Shown here one piece after another: positions 1 through 9,700 of a stretch of DNA of 45,755 nt (positions are counted from its first letter, which is position 1; each line of letters opens with the position of its first letter). The notes under the pieces were generated by a model that was not told where the DNA came from, made no database searches, and saw nothing but the letters and a program-made list of their open reading frames with translations. Both the position numbers and the translations under genes were made by a program. Source of the stretch: a virus (Duplodnaviria > Heunggongvirae > Uroviricota > Caudoviricetes); the IMG/VR virus record IMGVR_UViG_2703718845_000006. One strand, written 5' to 3'.

Positions 1-1629
1 TTGTCGCTACATGATAAATTATTAATGCATAACTTCGCATTAGCCAATAAAAAAAGCCCTGACTTCATATCTGAACTTCCTCAAATTGAACCTAAACCAT
101 ACAGCAATGGACATAAAATTAAATGGATAAACCACACACTTACTAGCACTGAAGTTACTCCCCCTGATAACCTGATTAAAATATGCATATTGATTGAGTC
201 AGGGGAAATTGCTATAACATCAGTAAGTGATATTGCCAATTTACTTGGAGTTCCTGCTGGCCAATTACTTTATATACTATATCATAAAAAAGATAATTAT
301 CGTACTTTTGAAATAGAAAAGAAGAATGGTAAAAAAAGAGTCATTAATGCTCCTTGTGGCGGTCTATCGATACTCCAAACGAGACTAAAGCCTGTTCTTG
401 AATATTTCTACAGGCCAAAGAAATCTGCTCATGGTTTTATAAAAGGAAAGAGCATCATTACTAATGCTGGGATGCATATTAAAAAAAATTTTGTCGTAAA
501 CATTGACCTAGAAAACTATTTCGAATCAATAAGTTTTGCTAGGGTTTATGGAATATTTAAAAGTAAACCTTTTAATTTTGCTCATCCAGCAGCTACTGTT
601 TTAGCTCAGTTATGTACTCACAATGGAAAATTACCTCAAGGTGCGTGTACATCGCCAATATTAGCAAATATTGCATCAGCTTCTCTAGACAAACAGCTCA
701 CCCAATTTGCAGGAAGAAAAAAAATATCTTATTCTAGGTATGCTGACGACATAACTTTTTCTTTCAATCAGAGAAATATTGATATAATCAAAAAAAACGA
801 CGACGGAAGTTATAGTCTTAGTGAAACTATAGACAATATTATTTCAAAAAATGGCTTTAAAATAAATTATGATAAATTTAGAGTTCAAACCAGAAATACA
901 AGACAAAGTGTTACTGGCTTAGTGGTTAATGATAAAGTTAACATTAACAGAAGATATATAAGAATTACACGTTCAATGATTCATAGATGGACAGATGATA
1001 AGCTAAAGTATGCACTTCTCTTTGCTACAGAAAAAGGATATCAGGCAAAGGATAATAACCACGCAATTCAAATTTTCCGAAATCATATTTATGGAAGGCT
1101 TAGCTTTATAAAAATGGTTAGAGGGAAAGACTATCCAGGATATTTAAAACTGATGTCATACATGAGTCATAACGATCCATTAAAAACCCAAGAAGGATTG
1201 CGAGCAATGAAAGAAACAGAAAACTTTGATGTTTTTATATGCCATGCAAGCGAAGACAAAAAAGGCATTGCAATTCCAATATATGACGAGTTAACTAAAC
1301 TTAAAATTTCAGCCTTCATAGATCATGTTGAGATAAAATGGGGCGACTCCTTAATTGAGAAAATAAATGCAGCACTAGTTAAATCAAAATATGTCATCGC
1401 TATTTTATCTGCTAATTCAGTCAATAAGGAATGGCCTCAAAAAGAATTAAGGGCAGTTTTAGCCAGCGAAATATCGAGTGGCGACGTAAAACTTTTGACC
1501 TTATTAAAAAAAGAAGACGAGGAGGTCGTAAACCTATCATTACCTTTACTTAGTGATAAGTATTATATGGTCTATGATAATAATCCTGAAGTAGTCGCCA
1601 ACAATATTAAATCACTCTTACAACGATAA
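1..1629 (+). CDS. Retron-type reverse transcriptase fused to a C-terminal TIR domain (RT-TIR); ORF is open to the window edge so the 5' end may be truncated
   Basis: RT motifs in translation: NAPCGGLSILQTRLKP, GFIKGKS..NIDLENYFESI, LPQGACTSPILANI, YADD at aa 247-250 (nt 739-750), retron-typical VTG at aa 304-306. C-terminal TIR-like segment FDVFICHASEDKK (aa 409-421) with W-x3-E (W478..E482). AT-rich compared with the flanking tail genes. Confidence 0.85.
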   Translation: MSLHDKLLMHNFALANKKSPDFISELPQIEPKPYSNGHKIKWINHTLTSTEVTPPDNLIKICILIESGEIAITSVSDIANLLGVPAGQLLYILYHKKDNYRTFEIEKKNGKKRVINAPCGGLSILQTRLKPVLEYFYRPKKSAHGFIKGKSIITNAGMHIKKNFVVNIDLENYFESISFARVYGIFKSKPFNFAHPAATVLAQLCTHNGKLPQGACTSPILANIASASLDKQLTQFAGRKKISYSRYADDITFSFNQRNIDIIKKNDDGSYSLSETIDNIISKNGFKINYDKFRVQTRNTRQSVTGLVVNDKVNINRRYIRITRSMIHRWTDDKLKYALLFATEKGYQAKDNNHAIQIFRNHIYGRLSFIKMVRGKDYPGYLKLMSYMSHNDPLKTQEGLRAMKETENFDVFICHASEDKKGIAIPIYDELTKLKISAFIDHVEIKWGDSLIEKINAALVKSKYVIAILSANSVNKEWPQKELRAVLASEISSGDVKLLTLLKKEDEEVVNLSLPLLSDKYYMVYDNNPEVVANNIKSLLQR

Positions 1630-1911
1630 TTCTCTCACAAAAGCAAATGTGCAGATTGATGCGTATTAAGTATTAATCTGTACATACAAAAAATCAATAA
1701 AATAATATATTTTTCATAACTTGTAGGTAACAACAATATATGTCGTAACGAATAGTTGGATAACCTCTATACCCTATTAATCAACCAATTAACTCTATGT
1801 AATCTCGCAGCCTCAAAACCCGACTATTGTTCTCTTAACAGTCAGTTCACGTTCCATTTCGGCCTGAGCCCCATAACATGGAAGAAAAAACGCCCCCAGT
1901 CAGTCCAGCTT

Positions 1912-2016
1912 TCAGACAATCAGTGTGTCACCTGCCGATAATATTCTGAGTAGTTTTTTCAGCCCAGGCCTTTCGGACTTTGTACCACTGATTTTATCTT
2001 CAAAATCAGCGCGCAT
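1912..2016 (-). pseudogene. Internal fragment of a serine recombinase (DNA invertase/resolvase), 34 codons, lacking the catalytic N-terminus and the C-terminal DNA-binding part
   Basis: Minus-strand translation MRADFEDKISGTKSERPGLKKLLRILSAGDTLIV* resembles the conserved FEDK-SG...RPGLK...GDTLVV block of Pin/Gin/Hin-type invertases (from memory); in-frame stops lie immediately upstream and the frame closes after DTLIV. Confidence 0.55.
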
Positions 2017-2073
2017 ACTTCGTAATCCAGCAAGCTCTTGTATATGACGTTATTATGGCTACAGCAGTAACGA

Positions 2074-2256
2074 TTATTCCATAACAGGTACTGTAGGCCA
2101 CTCAATATCAGGTGCAGTTGATGTATCAACACGGTTCAGCAACACCCGATACTTTTTCCAGGCTTCCAGCAACAAGGTTTCTTCCTCCGTTGCGATTTCC
2201 AGCTCAACAACAGTCTGAACGTACCGGGAACAGCCTCCTTCAGAGCTTGAAGGATA
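2074..2256 (-). pseudogene. tfa: Remnant of the tail-fibre assembly gene tfa (C-terminal ~42 codons only), in frame directly after the stf stop codon
   Basis: Minus-strand translation after the stf TGA reads ...[48 protein letters not shown], matching the C-terminus of lambda Tfa as I recall it; there is no start codon or N-terminal part. Confidence 0.65.
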
Positions 2257-5200
2257 TCAATGTTCGCTTCCTGTTAACTGCCGGACAAGTGCAACCAGTT
2301 CGCTTACCTGATTTTCCAGAGTGCTGATCCGGGTGCCTGCTGTTGCCAGATTTTGACGTAGCGTTGTGTTTTCCTCTTCCAGCGCGGTAACGCGATCATC
2401 TGTTTCACGGGCGACCTGAACAAGTAAACCCGTCACGGCGGCGTAGTCAACATTAAGATAGCGCGTTTCTTCGCGTAGCTTGTTGCCGTCAACGGTCGGA
2501 CCTTGCAACTCTTCACCATAATGAGTAAACGATCCCACAGCTTCTGGTATCGCCTCCATTACTTCCTGTGCAATAACGCCAGCATAAGGCAGGCCGTTTT
2601 CCTTGAGCGTGTAGGTGTAACCGTTCATTTTGCGGATTGCTTTCGTCGCGTCGCTGATAACGCGAATATCGTCTTTAAGGTCGCGGTCTGATGACTGATT
2701 CAGCGTTGTGCAATTAATAGCGCCATTTACATCAAACAACTGGCCTGCTGGTGTTCTTTGCGCATAAAACAGATACGCAGCAGACGTTGCAACCTCAAAA
2801 ACGTTTTGTCGATCACTTGACCCCCAGACCGCGATGCTAACTGGCAGTTCTGAATTACCTGAATTAAGTAAAGCAAAACGATTGCCAGTCCCTGTTTGTT
2901 TTCTAATTACTAAATCGGCAGTTGAGTTAACCTCATCTTTGTTGATGGTTAGCGCCTGCGCTGTAGCACCGTTAACAGTGCCACTTAGTAGTTGAACCGC
3001 TCCATCATCGCCATTTAACAGCACTTGAGCGCTGCTTCTGTGGTTTTTCAGGAACAACTTTTTGCCTGTGCTTTCTGATGTGCCTACCGACCACGCCGAA
3101 TTGGTTCCAGTGCTATCAACACCACGAACGGTACAATTCATGCTGCCATAATCTGACGTACTTCCAAGCACATCAATCCGCCCGCCACCTAATTTTGATG
3201 GAGTCGTCGAGGTTAACGACCTGACGGTTACATCCTGATTCCATCCGGAAACAACAACCTGACTCCACGCTGTCCAGTTTCCATTAACAACAAAGCGAAC
3301 GTATATACGTTTTGTGTCGCTGTTAATCAGCGTTTGCATGTTCGCATAATCTGAATCCCTAACCTTACGAGTCGATTCAACACGGAGCAAAAAGTTACCT
3401 GTTACGCCGTCAGGCTTGTTGGTGATATTTGCACCACCTGCAGAGGATGGACAAATATAGTATTTAACTGCCCCGGCATCTGACTTGATGATGGTCAGGT
3501 TGTTAAGATTAACCGTCTGGCCGTCAATGTTTTCCGGCTCGATGGCTCCTGCTATCCCGGCACTGAACGTAGCAACGGCTGAAAACGCTGTCGTACCTTT
3601 GAAAGCCAGTTGACCACCAATCGTTAATCCCTTGTCGAGTTTCGCTTGCGTGATCAATTTGCTGTTTTGTTTCTGATCAGGACTCTCACCAAAAGCCAGA
3701 TCCCCATTAGTATCAATTCCAAGATACTTTGGGTTCATGTTGTCTAACTTAAACCCAATGGACACATTTTCAGAAGAACCAGAACGCGTTAAAACCAACG
3801 GCGTGTGCTGTACTCCATAGATGCTGAGCGTAGTTGCCGATGAGTCAGTGTCGGTATTTGCAATCTCAATCGTTCTGCTTTTAATTTTATACGCTACTGT
3901 GAGATCACGGACTTCAACCCTCCCGTCGTGACGAACAACAAGATCCCCTCCTGATGTCCCCCCTGCTGTCTTTGCCCTGATGCGAACTTCGCCAAGCGAA
4001 TCAGTGTTAGGACCAGCATAGATTATGCCGCGCTCTGTGTTATCGCCAGTATAAAACCGCAAAGCGGTGACTCCACTGTCTGCCCGCAGGAAGACTGACG
4101 GTGTACCTTTTTTGATTGTCAAGTCACCGGTCATTGTATCGCCGGTTTTTTTTACCTGCGCATCGTTCGTTACGTTGCCAAGTCCAACATCCGATTTCGA
4201 CGGCTTGTTTGCCGAGCCGTATAGCTCATTGACGCTAAAAGTCCCGTTGTTAAGCCGGGCATCGTTGCCGGCATAGATCTTAATCTTCGCGGTTGAGTAG
4301 TCGATATTGATCGCTGACCACGTATCGCCGCACCGCGAGAATATACCAGAACCGTGGCTATAAATGGTCGCCGTGCTTCCGGTCGGCTTATCACCGCGCC
4401 AGAAATGACCACCTTTGTCACGCAGAGCTTTTAAGATCTCTACATCGCTCATCTTGCCGTTTGTTGATATCCCGCTACCGCCAAGACCGAAAGCGCCTGT
4501 AAGCATAGCATTAGAAAGACCCAAATCTGCTTTAGTCGGCTTGTTTACCTGGTCGTAAATCCTTACAACGTTGCCTTCAATATATCCAGAAGGCGCGGCG
4601 GTTTGCTTAACAAATCCGTCTGGAATGTATAATTCCGTGCGTGCCGTCTGCGCCAGTACCGCAACCTTTGCGCCGTTGATAAATGCGCACTGGAAGGCCC
4701 AAACCTCAATAAAGCCATCACCTTTAACCAGGCCGTAACGCATCTGGTTGTTATCGGTCAGCCCGGTTGACCCTAAGCGGCGTATACTCAGATGACGAGA
4801 AACATTATCCGCACTAAGCAAAGAAGGCAGACCGCGCGCCGAGATCTCGATAAAGTCAATGTTTCCGTAAGGGGAGCCGTAGTTACCAGCGTTAGTAACC
4901 ATTAGCGTTACATGGCAATTGTTGCTTCCGGGATCGGAAAGTTTCGCGATCTTTATGTAAAAAGACTCATTACCAGTAACAACGGGCCAATCGTATTGCG
5001 TCATCGGGCTGACGAGTCCCCCGACCTTGTCGAGATATTCTTTCGCCTTGTTCTCTGACGCTTTAGCGTTGGTTTCGCTGACCTTTGCTGCTGCCTCACT
5101 ATTTTTCGCGTTGGTTTCTGATTTTTTGGCTGCTGTCGCGGAGTTTGCCGATGCAGTTTGTGAGTCTGCTGCCGCCTGTGCGCTGTTATCCGCATTCGTC

Positions 5201-6033
5201 TCAGACGTTTTTGCGGCCTTCGCGGAATTTCCTGCTGCCGTTGCCGAGGAAGCTGCACTGCCGGCGCTCGAGGCAGCGCTCGTTTCTGATGATTTTGCCG
5301 CCACTTTTGAAGCCGACGCATCCCGGGCTGAGGTGGCAGCTTCTGACGCTTTCGTGGTCGCGGTGGATGCAGAAGTGGCCGCAGATTTTTGTGATGCTGC
5401 GGCATTCGTTTCTGACGTTTTCGCTGCACCGGCACTGGTGGCTGCCGCGCTTTTTGAAGACTCTGCGGCGGCAGCACTTTTTGATGCTTCAGTGGCCTTT
5501 GTTGATGCCGTTCCTGCGCTGGAAGACGCTGACTGAGCCGACGACGCGGCCTGTCCGGCTGACGTGCTGGCTGCACGTGCTGAGCCTGCAGCATCAGTCG
5601 CACGGGTTGCCGCCTCACGGGCTGATGTGCCGGCATCGCTGGCTGACTTCTTCGCGGCTGCTGTGTTCTGCGCCACTGCGGACGCGTTACGCGCCACCTC
5701 TTCCACCATCAGTTCAAAGCGGCGCAGTGCCTCCGGACGGGCATCATCCTCCGTCATGGCACCGAGAAAATCATTCAGCGTACCGGGTCGGGAATCTTCA
5801 TACACGGTGATGGTCCCGGCATGTGACGGCGGGAATCCTTCCACCAACAGAATAACGCTGTACTGACCGTACTCAACGTCCATGCTGTAACGCCCGGCTT
5901 CATCCGGATTTTCTGAGGCCACCGTGTTCACCACCACCGTGGTGCTGTTACGTTTTGCTTTCAGCTGGATTGTGCAGTTCTGTACCGGTTTACCTGCACC
6001 GTCTTTCAGTACACCTGAAATCTTTACTGCCAT
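2257..6033 (-). CDS. stf: Side tail fibre protein: lambda Stf-like N-terminus, Ala/Ser-rich repeat region, C-terminal intramolecular-chaperone (peptidase S74-like) domain
   Basis: N-terminus MAVKISGVLKDGAGKPVQNCTIQLKAKRNSTT matches lambda Stf; C-terminus DLKDDIRVISDATKAIRKMNGYTYTLKE...VDYAAVTGLLVQVARE is typical of the self-cleaving chaperone domain of tail fibres/endosialidases. Probable start is the ATG at 6033 rather than the GTG at 6039. Confidence 0.9.
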   Translation of the reverse strand: MAVKISGVLKDGAGKPVQNCTIQLKAKRNSTTVVVNTVASENPDEAGRYSMDVEYGQYSVILLVEGFPPSHAGTITVYEDSRPGTLNDFLGAMTEDDARPEALRRFELMVEEVARNASAVAQNTAAAKKSASDAGTSAREAATRATDAAGSARAASTSAGQAASSAQSASSSAGTASTKATEASKSAAAAESSKSAAATSAGAAKTSETNAAASQKSAATSASTATTKASEAATSARDASASKVAAKSSETSAASSAGSAASSATAAGNSAKAAKTSETNADNSAQAAADSQTASANSATAAKKSETNAKNSEAAAKVSETNAKASENKAKEYLDKVGGLVSPMTQYDWPVVTGNESFYIKIAKLSDPGSNNCHVTLMVTNAGNYGSPYGNIDFIEISARGLPSLLSADNVSRHLSIRRLGSTGLTDNNQMRYGLVKGDGFIEVWAFQCAFINGAKVAVLAQTARTELYIPDGFVKQTAAPSGYIEGNVVRIYDQVNKPTKADLGLSNAMLTGAFGLGGSGISTNGKMSDVEILKALRDKGGHFWRGDKPTGSTATIYSHGSGIFSRCGDTWSAINIDYSTAKIKIYAGNDARLNNGTFSVNELYGSANKPSKSDVGLGNVTNDAQVKKTGDTMTGDLTIKKGTPSVFLRADSGVTALRFYTGDNTERGIIYAGPNTDSLGEVRIRAKTAGGTSGGDLVVRHDGRVEVRDLTVAYKIKSRTIEIANTDTDSSATTLSIYGVQHTPLVLTRSGSSENVSIGFKLDNMNPKYLGIDTNGDLAFGESPDQKQNSKLITQAKLDKGLTIGGQLAFKGTTAFSAVATFSAGIAGAIEPENIDGQTVNLNNLTIIKSDAGAVKYYICPSSAGGANITNKPDGVTGNFLLRVESTRKVRDSDYANMQTLINSDTKRIYVRFVVNGNWTAWSQVVVSGWNQDVTVRSLTSTTPSKLGGGRIDVLGSTSDYGSMNCTVRGVDSTGTNSAWSVGTSESTGKKLFLKNHRSSAQVLLNGDDGAVQLLSGTVNGATAQALTINKDEVNSTADLVIRKQTGTGNRFALLNSGNSELPVSIAVWGSSDRQNVFEVATSAAYLFYAQRTPAGQLFDVNGAINCTTLNQSSDRDLKDDIRVISDATKAIRKMNGYTYTLKENGLPYAGVIAQEVMEAIPEAVGSFTHYGEELQGPTVDGNKLREETRYLNVDYAAVTGLLVQVARETDDRVTALEEENTTLRQNLATAGTRISTLENQVSELVALVRQLTGSEH
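5049..5712 (-). repeat. Low-complexity Ala/Ser/Thr-rich coding repeat inside stf (source of the spurious antisense ORFs)
   Basis: Repetitive translation (AAKTSETNA, SASSAGTAST, AAKKSETNAKNSE...); several overlapping ORFs on the opposite strand have no protein-like character. Confidence 0.6.
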
Positions 6034-6042
6034 ATTCACCCC

Positions 6043-6071
6043 ACAAAAAAGCCCGCCTGAACCGGCGGGCT
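6043..6071 (-). terminator. Intrinsic terminator between lom and stf
   Basis: Stem GCCCGCC (6051-6057) / GGCGGGC (6064-6070) with a 6-nt loop, followed on the minus strand by a six-U run (complement of 6045-6050). Confidence 0.6.
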
Positions 6072-6097
6072 GTCATAACACTGTGTTACCTGGCTAA

Positions 6098-6697
6098 TCA
6101 GAACTTATAACCGACACCCATGATGAAACCGTCAGTGCGCCAGTCACCACTGCCGGAGCCTTCATAAGCAATATCAATGGCCACGGATTCGGTCGGGTTA
6201 AACTGCACGCCAGCCCCCCACGCCAGAGACGTGTTGCTGCGGCGACCGTCATCACTTCCGGTCAGCACTTCGTGCGTTTTCCCCTTGTTGTCAGTTACGC
6301 GGAGATAATCCCCGGAGAAAGTCGAAACACGGCTGTAAGCCACACCCGCCATCGCATACGCGCTGAACCATTCATTCACGCGCACAGACGGCCCCGCCAT
6401 CACGCTGAACCAGCGATTACGCACGGAATCTTCATGCCAGCGGGTATCGCTGTAATGAGTCAGCTGGCGATTCTTGTCTTCTGCATAGCTGAATGACGTC
6501 ACCATCCCCAGCGTGTCCGTAAACTCATAGCGGTATTTCACGTTAATCCCGTTAAGATCATCGCTGCCGGGAACGTTCGTCGAGGCATGAAGATACCCCG
6601 CGCTCAGCGTGGACTGATGTTCAGACGCCCATGAAGGCGCACCGGATACGACCAGACAGATGGCTGCGGACAAAATGGCTGCACAAACTTTACGCAT
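6098..6697 (-). CDS. lom: Lom-family outer membrane beta-barrel protein (Ail/Lom/PagC family)
   Basis: Signal peptide MRKVCAAILSAAICLVVSGAPSWA, C-terminal aromatic residue (..GVGYKF), position between J and stf as in lambda. Confidence 0.9.
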   Translation of the reverse strand: MRKVCAAILSAAICLVVSGAPSWASEHQSTLSAGYLHASTNVPGSDDLNGINVKYRYEFTDTLGMVTSFSYAEDKNRQLTHYSDTRWHEDSVRNRWFSVMAGPSVRVNEWFSAYAMAGVAYSRVSTFSGDYLRVTDNKGKTHEVLTGSDDGRRSNTSLAWGAGVQFNPTESVAIDIAYEGSGSGDWRTDGFIMGVGYKF

Positions 6698-6721
6698 AAT
6701 TACCTCTCGCTTTTCTGCAAT

Positions 6722-6750
6722 AAAAAAGGCGTCATTCCTGACGCCCTTTA
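6722..6750 (-). terminator. Intrinsic terminator downstream of J
   Basis: Stem GGCGTCA (6728-6734) / TGACGCC (6739-6745), loop TTCC, followed on the minus strand by TTTTTTATT. Confidence 0.6.
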
Positions 6751-6767
6751 TTGGGGTTATAACAATT

Positions 6768-9700
6768 TCAACGAATACTGATGCCGGAAGCAGCCTTTTT
6801 GGTCACAATCACCGTACAGTCGGTGATATTGCCTGCCCCCTGATTGCCTTTCTGGAAAATCTTAAACTCCAGAGTGACGCTTCCCCTGCCACTCGGCATA
6901 TCAATAACCGCACTGTAACTACCGGGAATGGCCCCTTTAGTTTCTCTGGATGCGATTAATACGCCGTTTTTGCGAACTTCAAAACCATAACCCGTGTATC
7001 TTGTACCTCCCGGGTTATTACCACTTCCCGGATCGCTATACGCTATTCCGTTAAAGATAATGGGCGGAATAATAATCTGGCGGTCAAAGTTATGATCATC
7101 GCTGATGGTGACTGTAACCGTACCGTTTGGTGTTTCCGTGTTACCCCACGTACCGACTTTTTTCGGGAAGGCTTTTGATACAGCTTTAACGAAATCCCCT
7201 CTGACCTGGGTCGCCTCCAGCATGCCCTTAATCGTACAGTTCTGGTTAATCGTGACATTGTTGAGCGTTCCTGAGTTCGCATTCACACTACCACTGATAT
7301 CCGCATTTTTAGCGGTCAGCTTTCCGTCTGATGTCAGGGAAAATACCGGAGGACTGCCACCGCTGGTAATGGTGGGGGCCGTCAGGCGTTTCAGGAACAC
7401 TTCATTCATGAATATCTGATCGCCCTGACCAACAAACATCGGCTTTGTGTTGCCATTCGCAGGATTAATCATCGCAATCCTGTCTGCTGCCAGCAGCACC
7501 TGACTCTGCATGCCGTCAGGGGTGTTCTCAATACCGGCACCGATACCCGCAATATAAAGGCGTCCGTCCTGCATCTGCTGCAGCTTCACTGCCCACATGC
7601 TGTTCAGGTTATTATTTGTATCAACCTGAACCTTCTGTATCTGCTGGATTGCCGCACTCTGGTCTTCCAGTTTCTTATTGACGGTCTGTGTTATTTCATT
7701 GCTGACATCCGTTATGGACGTCCTGATTTCAGTCAGGTCAGGCGCAAGCTGACCGTTATCAATCTGCGTCCACAGCTCCTGAGCCAGATGGGTTTTCCCT
7801 ATCTCGCCTTTGAAAAAATCCAGATAGCCTGATGCATCATCACTCGGCTGACCGACAGCCTCCACGAATGCCGATTTGCCAACGGTGTTCACACTGCGAA
7901 CGTAAAAATAATAATCATGGCCCGGTTTGATATTGATACTGGCGGCTATCCAGTACAGTGCCGTACCAAGATAACGCGCGCTGGTTTCAACCTGCCTGAT
8001 ATCCGCAATCCGTTTTTCCGAGAACCAGAACTCAAACTGTACCGTCGGGTCATAAACGGCAAGATGCGGCGTGGCGGTTATCTGAAAATAGCCCGGCGTC
8101 AGCTCAATCCTCGACGGTGCTGCCGGTGCGGCAATCCGGAACGATACCGACGCCGGATCGCCCTGCTGCCCCCACGCATTTACCGCCCGGACTGTCAGCC
8201 TGTAGTTCCCCAGCGCCAGTTGCCTGAAGCGGTATGTGGTTTCCGTCGTCCGGGCCGTGCTGACCAGCCGCTCACTGCCGTCGTCCGCTGTTACGGTCAG
8301 ACGGAGCAGGAAGCTCACCCCCTTCACCACCTTCGGCGTGTCCCAGCGCGCCAGCACCTGATATTCCCCGCTGTCTGCGGTGACTTCGGCAGTCAGGTGC
8401 TGCACCGCTGGCGGCGTGACACCATTCACCGTGCCGCTCTGGTCGCCGTCAAAGTGCGCCCCGTTATCCACGATGGCCTCTTTTTCCGGTACATGCTGCA
8501 CGGCGGTGATGGCATACGTGCCGTCATCGTTCTCACGGATACTCACGCAGCGGAACAGGCGCTGGCGCAGCGTCGGCAGCTTCAGCCCCCATACGCTGTA
8601 TCCGGCAACGCCGTCAGGAACACGGCTCACTTTCACCTTCACGCCGTCGGTGACGGACTGGACCTCCACGCTGACCGGACTCCCCTGCCCGTCAACCAGG
8701 CTTATCAGCGTGGTACCGGAAGATGGCAGCGTGATTTCACGGTCGAGCGTCAGCGTCCGGGTCTGGCTGTTCACCGCCAGCACGCGCCCGCCGGTGCTGA
8801 TACCGGCATAGTCATCATCGCAGATTTCAATGACATCGCCCGGTACATGGCGAAGCCCTTCGGCACCCACGCTGAAGTCCACGGTCTGCGTCTCCAGCAG
8901 CTCCGTTTTAATCAGCCACAGCCCGGCGCGGTGTGCCTGCCCCCGGCTGGTACAGCCAAAGGCATCCATCTTCGTGACGTTACGACCGTAACGGAGAATG
9001 GCCTGCGTGTCCTCCACAAGCTCTGTCGCCGTCTCCCAGCCGTTATCCGGGTCAATCCAGTTCACCTCAACGGCATTATGGCGGTCTTTCAGGGCGCTGA
9101 AACTGTAGCGGAACGGCGCGCCATCATCCGGCATCACCACATTACTGCGGTTATAGGTCCACACCTTATCCGACGGTCGGTCCTGCACGAACGTCAGCGT
9201 CTGCCCGTTCCATACCGGCATACAGCGCATCGCCGAGCAGAAATCGCTGAGCACATCCCACGCCTTACGCTGTGTGGTCAGCCAGGCATTACAGGTGATG
9301 CGCGGCTCCGTGCCGCCAAAGCCGTCCGGCACTGACTGGTCGCAGTACTGGCCGATAAGATACAGCGCCCATTTATCCACATCCACCGCACCAAGACGTT
9401 TCCCCATGCCGTAGCGCGGATGGGTCAGCATATCCCACAGACACCAGGCCGGGTTGTTGCTGTATGCCGGTTTAAACGTTCCGTCCCAGATACCGCTGTA
9501 TTGCCGCGTCTGCGGGTTATAATTCGACGGCACCTGCAGAATACGCCCGCGCAGATGATAATTACGGCTCACCTGCTGGCTGCCGAACTGCTCCGAGTCC
9601 ACCTGCACGCCGACCAGTGCCGTGTTCGGGTAGCACTGTTTCACATCGATAATTTCGGTGTATGACGACCAGAGCGTTTTGTTCTGCAGCTGGTCTGTGG

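Follow-up and report, generated by a model that had tools for sequence, protein, structure and literature searches.

The window is the whole stretch of DNA analysed here, 45,755 nucleotides of a caudoviricete virus recorded in IMG/VR as IMGVR_UViG_2703718845_000006. At its left end, on the plus strand, lies the RT-TIR gene of a type XII retron defence system (1-1629), followed by an AT-rich flank (1630-1780). The side tail fibre gene stf runs towards it on the minus strand (2257-6039), so that the two are convergent. Between them, and in the orientation of stf, lie a 54-nt spacer (2203-2256), a remnant of a tail fibre assembly gene (tfa; 2074-2202), a joint of 42 nt (2032-2073) and a pseudogene of a Pin-type serine invertase (1781-2031). 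These features are described below and compared with the same locus in other phages and prophages.

The side tail fibre gene ends in an S74 domain

The stf gene encodes 1260 amino acids and stops at a TGA at 2257-2259. The N-terminus of Stf is of the lambda type (Pfam phage_tail_N, E 5e-72), the same as that encoded by the lambda stf-tfa, Rac stfR-tfaR-pinR and Qin stfQ-tfaQ-pinQ loci. At its C-terminus, a Peptidase_S74 domain (PF13884; Pfam E 3.4e-13) covers residues 1117-1168, corresponding to about 2536-2691 in the window. The Ser/Lys motif of Stf, SSDRDLKDDI, aligns with SSDRRIKKDI of the long tail fibre of phage S16 (chain 6F45_A). Hence, the Stf of the window has both features by which we recognized S74 tail fibres, the C-terminal domain and the Ser/Lys motif. 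Peptidase_S74 and the SDR..K motif are shared with the K1F endosialidase, the L-shaped fibre of T5 and gp37 of S16. Unlike in the endosialidase-type fibres, the S74 domain is here grafted onto a lambda-type Stf shaft, with cleavage and independence from Tfa as predicted properties.

Removal of the chaperone part after folding is established for the S74 domain family. The conserved Ser/Lys motif suggests that, in this Stf too, the S74 part would be cleaved off once folding is complete. An Stf that folds with its own chaperone would no longer need a separate Tfa. This predicted independence fits the case of phage mEp460, which has the same S74-ended fibre and in whose whole genome the tfa stub is the sole Tfa match. 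In the window, tblastn found no second tfa copy, and no second serine recombinase was found there either.

At the DNA level, the region encoding the S74 chaperone part (2190-2760) shows 67-85% similarity to lateral and long tail fibre genes of virulent siphophages. The matches are to T5-like phages, Dhillonvirus, phages of the JenP2/FritzHoffmann types and mEp044/mEp554. This similarity indicates that the S74 domain has been exchanged between temperate and virulent phages.

A tfa stub and a constant spacer follow stf

Downstream of the TGA, the frame of stf stays open for 60 codons, up to a TAA at 2074-2076. Eighteen of these codons belong to the spacer and 42 are derived from tfa. The tfa remnant (2074-2202, minus strand) comprises the last 42 codons (2077-2202) of a lambda-type tail fibre assembly gene and its TAA stop, but neither a start codon nor the N-terminal 152 codons. 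Over these 42 codons, there is 100% identity to the C-terminus of the full-length, 194-residue Tfa of a sister prophage, Ecol_224. In a tblastn comparison of the stub with full-length Tfa, 43 of 48 positions are identical (E 2e-26), and the tfa 3' ends of lambda, Rac and Qin have 91-94% DNA identity to the stub. An earlier note on this DNA had read the C-terminus of lambda Tfa in frame after the stf TGA, and this is confirmed by a match to Pfam Caudo_TAP (PF02413; E 4.9e-20), restricted to positions 86-130 of the 131 of the profile, and by 93-94% identity of lambda tfa DNA to 2069-2205.

Homology to full-length tfa genes ends at 2202-2219, and further upstream only the spacer of the S74 module and the stop of stf are found. 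The profile match to Tfa is therefore not accompanied by a complete gene with its start and the N-terminal ~150 residues. Overall, the remnant is a pseudogene stub and not a member gene of the Tfa family. In genomes of 100% identity, RefSeq labels it "tail fiber assembly protein, incomplete".

The spacer (2203-2256, minus strand) is non-coding and travels with the S74 fibre module. It is present in phages Ayreon and mEp460 and amounts to 51 copies in all, which are nearly invariant and fall into two main haplotypes. When aligned with full tfa genes, 11 of the 17 nucleotides at 2203-2219 match tfa, with clear tfa identity stopping at 2202; these matches may represent microhomology at the breakpoint. 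A donor of the spacer was not found among phage genomes; in the closest non-lambdoid S74 genes (mEp044, mEp554 and MagusPhagus), the match comes no nearer to the stop than about 100 nt upstream of it. By inspection of the sequence, two of the three frames of the spacer are open, and one junction in three would be in frame. An open junction in frame is thus expected by chance in roughly one case out of five, which makes the in-frame relation of stf and tfa unremarkable.

The invertase pseudogene

The remnant of the serine invertase (1781-2031, minus strand) corresponds to about codons 21-138 of PinE, as delimited by tblastn, DNA alignments and Pfam. It contains a 34-codon open reading frame (1912-2016, minus strand) that matches PinE residues 31-64. 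With PinE as query, tblastn gives an E value of 1e-19 for a gapped alignment that reaches PinE residue 126. In addition, a conceptual translation stitched from the 34-codon frame and the pieces downstream matches Pfam Resolvase (PF00239) with an E value of 1.4e-17. The open reading frame had been correctly recognized as part of an invertase, but the sequence after it, previously described as unrelated, is invertase sequence as well. There, homology continues in shifted frames (GRFFFHVMG, AEMERELTVKRTIVG, then FEAAR). In alignments with e14 pinE and with the less decayed copy of a prophage integrated at ssrA (L005), it is secure to 1824 and weak to about 1781; the block 2005-1824 has 80-87% DNA identity to pinE. 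Altogether, the alignments reveal significant similarity to Tfa as well as to serine recombinases, far beyond chance.

Several lesions interrupt the pseudogene on the minus strand. A 1-nt deletion at 2005/2006 places the ATG of the 34-codon frame outside the ancestral frame. Stop codons replace W61 (1912-1914) and R65 (1900-1902). Further along, an internal deletion of about 100 nt is found at 1896/1897, a 1-nt deletion at 1869/1870 and a 1-nt insertion near 1823. PinE codons 1 to about 20, including the region of the catalytic Ser10 (YVRVST), have no counterpart in the window. The C-terminal DNA-binding part, with its helix-turn-helix, is gone, the homology stopping at PinE codon ~126-138 of 184. 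Hence, when set against the Pin/Gin/Hin/Cin invertases, the remnant has the resolvase domain match but not the catalytic serine, an intact frame or the helix-turn-helix. Its RefSeq label, again in the 100%-identical genomes, is "recombinase family protein, frameshifted", a pseudogene.

The joint of 42 nt that leads from the tfa stop to the invertase remnant (2032-2073, minus strand) is about 83-86% identical in two prophages at ssrA (L005 and L006). Crossover sites of the hix, gix or pix type were not detected in 1600-6100 at up to 9 mismatches, in a scan that recovered both the e14 and the P2-like positive controls. The 26-bp site sequences used were validated solely by these two controls.

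The RT-TIR retron gene and the cargo boundary

The RT-TIR gene is assigned to RT-TIR_XII by PADLOC (E 3e-187) and carries the Pfam domains RVT_1 and TIR_2. Its score against NCBIfam NF042941 (Retron_TIR_antiphage) is 670 bits, for a cut-off of 600. The true start of the gene is probably at 25. Its AT-rich 3' flank (1630-1780, no strand) forms the right end of the cargo. GC content is 0.20-0.29 across 1620-1779 and reaches 0.49 by 1820-1899, the rise falling within about 1700-1860. To the left of 1781-1824, neither pinE nor the ssrA prophages show homology to the window. From the extent of the invertase homology together with the GC step, we place the boundary between RT-TIR cargo and phage DNA at about 1781-1824. 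A position near 1900-1912, proposed before, is wrong, as it would fall within the invertase homology.

The RT-TIR gene is found in 83 of 5426 complete E. coli genomes and in every case adjoins the same invertase stub. The phage collection gave no match, and the plasmid collection a single one, a record with the same prophage piece. A search for the edge of the RT-TIR cassette in independent contexts gave, among GTDB species representatives, distant TIR matches only. An insertion of ISSen4 interrupts the gene in several strains, for instance YJ4. The msr/msd RNA of the retron should lie upstream, beyond the window.

No intrinsic terminator was detected in 1500-2500, a span that covers the interval separating stf from the RT-TIR gene convergent with it. 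Consequently, late-operon transcription, once induced, would run antisense through the retron gene. That such antisense transcription matters for self-immunity of the retron is a speculation.

Replacement of the fibre end seen against a sister prophage

In strain Ecol_224, the same prophage is present next to prfC, and it contains the RT-TIR gene and the invertase pseudogene of the window. Its identity to the window is 99.7% over 1-2219 and 95% over 5192-6785. Between these shared flanks, however, Ecol_224 has a full tfa of 194 codons' worth of protein and a conventional distal part of stf. The comparison sets the limits of the swap in the window, with the right-hand breakpoint at 2203-2219 and the other limit at 5192, and thus delimits a swapped-in cassette within the stf region (2220-5191, minus strand). 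Matching flanks around a full tfa and a conventional stf support the conclusion that an S74-carrying fibre end took the place of the stf 3' part and of 152 codons of tfa.

According to the earlier note, a chaperone-containing fibre gene had replaced the original stf 3' end, tfa and an invertible-segment system. As far as the stf 3' end and most of tfa are concerned, the comparison with Ecol_224 upholds this description. The invertible segment is a separate matter: it was not lost in the fibre swap, for the same invertase pseudogene adjoins the full tfa of Ecol_224.

The invertase remnant in other prophages

The joint between tfa stop and invertase is common to the window, to Ecol_224, where it stands beside a full tfa, and to prophages at ssrA. 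In one of the ssrA prophages (L005, 4400-5360), the invertase reaches its natural stop and is followed by unrelated hypothetical genes. In another (L006, 3350-5120), it breaks off at about PinE codon 95, before an RnlA/RnlB toxin-antitoxin pair. On the other side, the invertase remnant is absent beside the S74/tfa junction in mEp460, in Ayreon and in many prophages. Judged from its co-occurrence with intact tfa and from the joint shared with the ssrA prophages, the decay of the invertase is independent of the fibre swap and older. Across these prophages, the stretch from the fibre module to the prophage end acts as a slot for varying cargo.

As in the window, a Pin-type recombinase gene adjoins tfa in the Rac and Qin loci. 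Unlike in lambda, Rac and Qin, only 42 codons of tfa are left in the window, and an S74 chaperone forms the end of the fibre. Moreover, pin of Rac and Qin is intact and convergent with tfa, whereas the remnant in the window has the direction of tfa and begins 42 nt beyond its stop. Like in the window, pin lies downstream of the fibre/tfa pair and co-directional with it in the P region of e14 (stfP-tfaP / tfaE-stfE / pinE), whose pinE has 80-87% DNA identity to 1824-2005, and in P2-like fibre inversion modules. These modules have an inverted alternative segment in between, whereas the window has neither segment nor crossover site. In addition, unlike the e14 and P2-like pin, the invertase of the window is without its catalytic N-terminus and without its DNA-binding C-terminus. 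We infer that the co-directional layout of the window would descend, by deletion, from an e14/P2-like layout. An ancestral invertible segment is assumed here on the model of the e14 and P2-like prophages; no lambdoid locus with intact co-directional tfa, inverted segment and pin was recovered.

Spread and recombination of the S74/tfa junction

The same spacer and breakpoint are present in 805 of 5426 complete E. coli genomes (about 15%). The junction occurs at different integration sites, namely bioA-ybhB, zinT, ompT-appY, potB and prfC. It is also found in 44 IMG/VR contigs and in the sequenced phage isolates mEp460 (NC_019716) and Ayreon (MF807953). Both isolates have the S74-ended stf, the 54-nt spacer and the tfa breakpoint of the window, with 94-97% identity to it. 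Unlike in the window, their stub is followed by DinI/int or hypothetical genes, with neither an invertase remnant nor an RT-TIR gene. The junction pattern is absent from GTDB species representatives. In K-12, which is without the S74/tfa junction, the junction query matches on its tfa side alone. A literature search found no paper on this particular junction.

The presence of an identical junction in 805 of the 5426 genomes, at many sites and in phage isolates argues that it is not of local origin. The prophage of the window would probably have acquired it by homologous recombination instead of making it in situ. The most economical history would be a junction formed once and then moved by homologous recombination.

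Behind this constant junction, the 51 copies show at least eight alleles of the tfa 3' end, with translations ending in PALP, TVPVME, TNPVRE, EEPDTV, VAPIG and others. A four-gamete test was applied to 44 of the 51 junction copies, those with complete, indel-free flanks. It gave at least 23 recombination events in 757 nt, with at least 6 inside 2118-2197; for the adjacent 3' part of stf, at least 16 events in about 560 nt were obtained. In experiments, homology of stf-tfa let lambda recombine with Rac and Qin, and some of the crossovers lay inside tfa (PMC3945230).

Probable origin of the two remnants and alternative explanations

Very probably, the DNA between stf and the retron cargo contains the remains of two genes, independent of each other and without function, which mosaic evolution has left behind at the distal end of a lambda-like late operon. 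Their anatomy suggests that neither functions, and no product is expected. In the proposed course of events, an older deletion would have taken away the assumed inverted fibre segment and the crossover sites, as well as some 20-25 codons from the start of a Pin-type invertase, leaving a dead invertase 42 nt after the tfa stop. In this lineage, the invertase would later have gained the ~100-nt deletion, the stops and the frameshifts, and its 3' third would have been lost where the RT-TIR retron cargo now begins. As for the fibre, the S74-ended distal part of stf would have displaced both a conventional stf 3' end and the first 152 codons of tfa. The incoming cassette would have brought 54 nt of its own 3' flank, joined to tfa at about codon 153, and the 126-nt tfa stub would have been left as neutral DNA. 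The cassette would then spread among lambdoid phages and prophages, with homology arms in the conserved 5' part of stf on one side and in the tfa stub and the DNA downstream of it on the other. 

A single event in situ, replacing stf 3' end, tfa and invertible segment together, could account for two scars lying within 60 nt of each other. This is nevertheless very unlikely: the invertase pseudogene stands with the same lesions beside a complete tfa in Ecol_224, its joint to the tfa stop is shared with the ssrA prophages, and mEp460, Ayreon and many prophages have the S74/tfa junction but no invertase remnant. Still more improbable is a programmed readthrough of the stf TGA, which would yield a functional fusion of Stf with 60 further residues ending in the Tfa C-terminus. 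The frame is indeed open and in phase past the TGA, the stop is TGA in 50 of the 51 copies, and 44 of the 45 translated copies (the window and the 44 IMG/VR contigs) keep the frame open, which could be read as constraint. However, the spacer is open in a second frame too, and the open frame of the stub is explained equally well by continual recombination with functional tfa alleles. The stop is TAA in one of the 51 copies and one of the 45 translated copies is frameshifted in the stub. Moreover, all four variable sites of the spacer fall at codon positions 1 or 2 and change the amino acid, while those of the stub are distributed about equally among the three positions (27, 28 and 33), with no excess at the third. 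Considering the TAA copy, the codon-position pattern and the frameshifted copy, we see no coding-type conservation past a conserved leaky stop, and nothing in the aligned copies supports readthrough. In addition, residues added by readthrough would be attached to the S74 chaperone part, which is presumably removed from this Stf after folding. The stop of the window stands in the context UGA-U, reportedly the most efficient UGA terminator in E. coli, a result attributed to Poole, Brown and Tate (1995).

Selection might also have kept the tfa stub as a portable homology arm for exchange of the self-chaperoning fibre cassette, a proposal that we regard as doubtful. Recombination does occur inside the stub, and its full 126 nt are retained in viable phages and in 805 genomes; yet a neutral stretch of 126 nt, repeatedly overwritten from functional alleles, needs no selection, and recombination is also dense beside the stub, with the at least 16 events in ~560 nt of the stf 3' part. 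It is similarly unlikely that both stubs are fixed boundaries of two exchange slots, retained because the lineages with the stubs exchange modules more readily. If this were true, the tfa stub would be a right-hand arm for moving the S74 cassette into any tfa-bearing lambdoid phage, and the invertase stub would be the inner edge of a slot for defence genes, the type XII RT-TIR gene here and RnlAB elsewhere. Finally, the region might encode a small RNA of the Rfam family IS009 (RF02111), to which cmscan matches 2117-2317 on the minus strand with 95.4 bits (E 1e-22). The score does not reach the gathering score of 117, good alignment is confined to model positions ~95-199, the folding energy does not differ from that of shuffled sequences (z -1.15) and no terminator was found. 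Furthermore, the source of the model is the interior of tfa coding sequence, and full-length tfa genes reach 221-228 bits with it on the coding strand. The origin of the model in the tfa coding interior accounts for the sub-threshold score in the window, and a small RNA of this family is hardly credible here. The IS009 matches in prophages are tfa genes (tfaD, tfaQ and others) or fragments of them, and not evidence for a small RNA.

The preferred reading, two separate scars of ordinary module swapping and not a working element, agrees with the existing RefSeq annotation of both remnants as pseudogenes. Mosaic exchange of fibre distal parts, loss of fibre invertases and intramolecular S74 chaperones are all well-known phenomena. 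The analysis adds the precise position of the breakpoints and the occurrence of one S74/tfa junction in about 15% of complete E. coli genomes. The value of the analysis lies in annotation and mapping, with a receptor-binding cassette limited to 2220-5191, an inner boundary of the RT-TIR cargo at ~1781-1824 and two separate events. The locus would also offer a clean example of a self-chaperoning S74 end making a separate Tfa dispensable in lambda-like phages. It reveals no new mechanism, and may be of use for engineering of lambda side tail fibres and for host-range prediction.

Other searches and related arrangements

RNA folding of 2060-2275 and of 2200-2270 does not differ from that of shuffled sequence. 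Repeats in 1600-2400 are limited to short two-copy matches, judged to be due to chance. Two further Rfam hits in the window, both on the minus strand, inside coding sequence and far below the gathering score, were also attributed to chance: CRISPR-DR6 at 761-827 (E 0.073) and the glutamine riboswitch at 2460-2533 (E 0.67). Matches to IS009 were seen elsewhere at 4857-5055 in L011, 4345-4543 in L009 and 8488-8686 in L002.

As in the window, the tfaD and tfaX genes of the K-12 prophage DLP12 are tfa fragments lying beside accessory cargo at a prophage end. In two of the prophages compared, L012 (at bioA-ybhB) and L015 (at potB), the stub is followed within 2900-4080 by a gene for a SAM-dependent methyltransferase, a DinI fragment and a second tfa fragment, an arrangement that resembles tfaD-ybcY-tfaX of DLP12.
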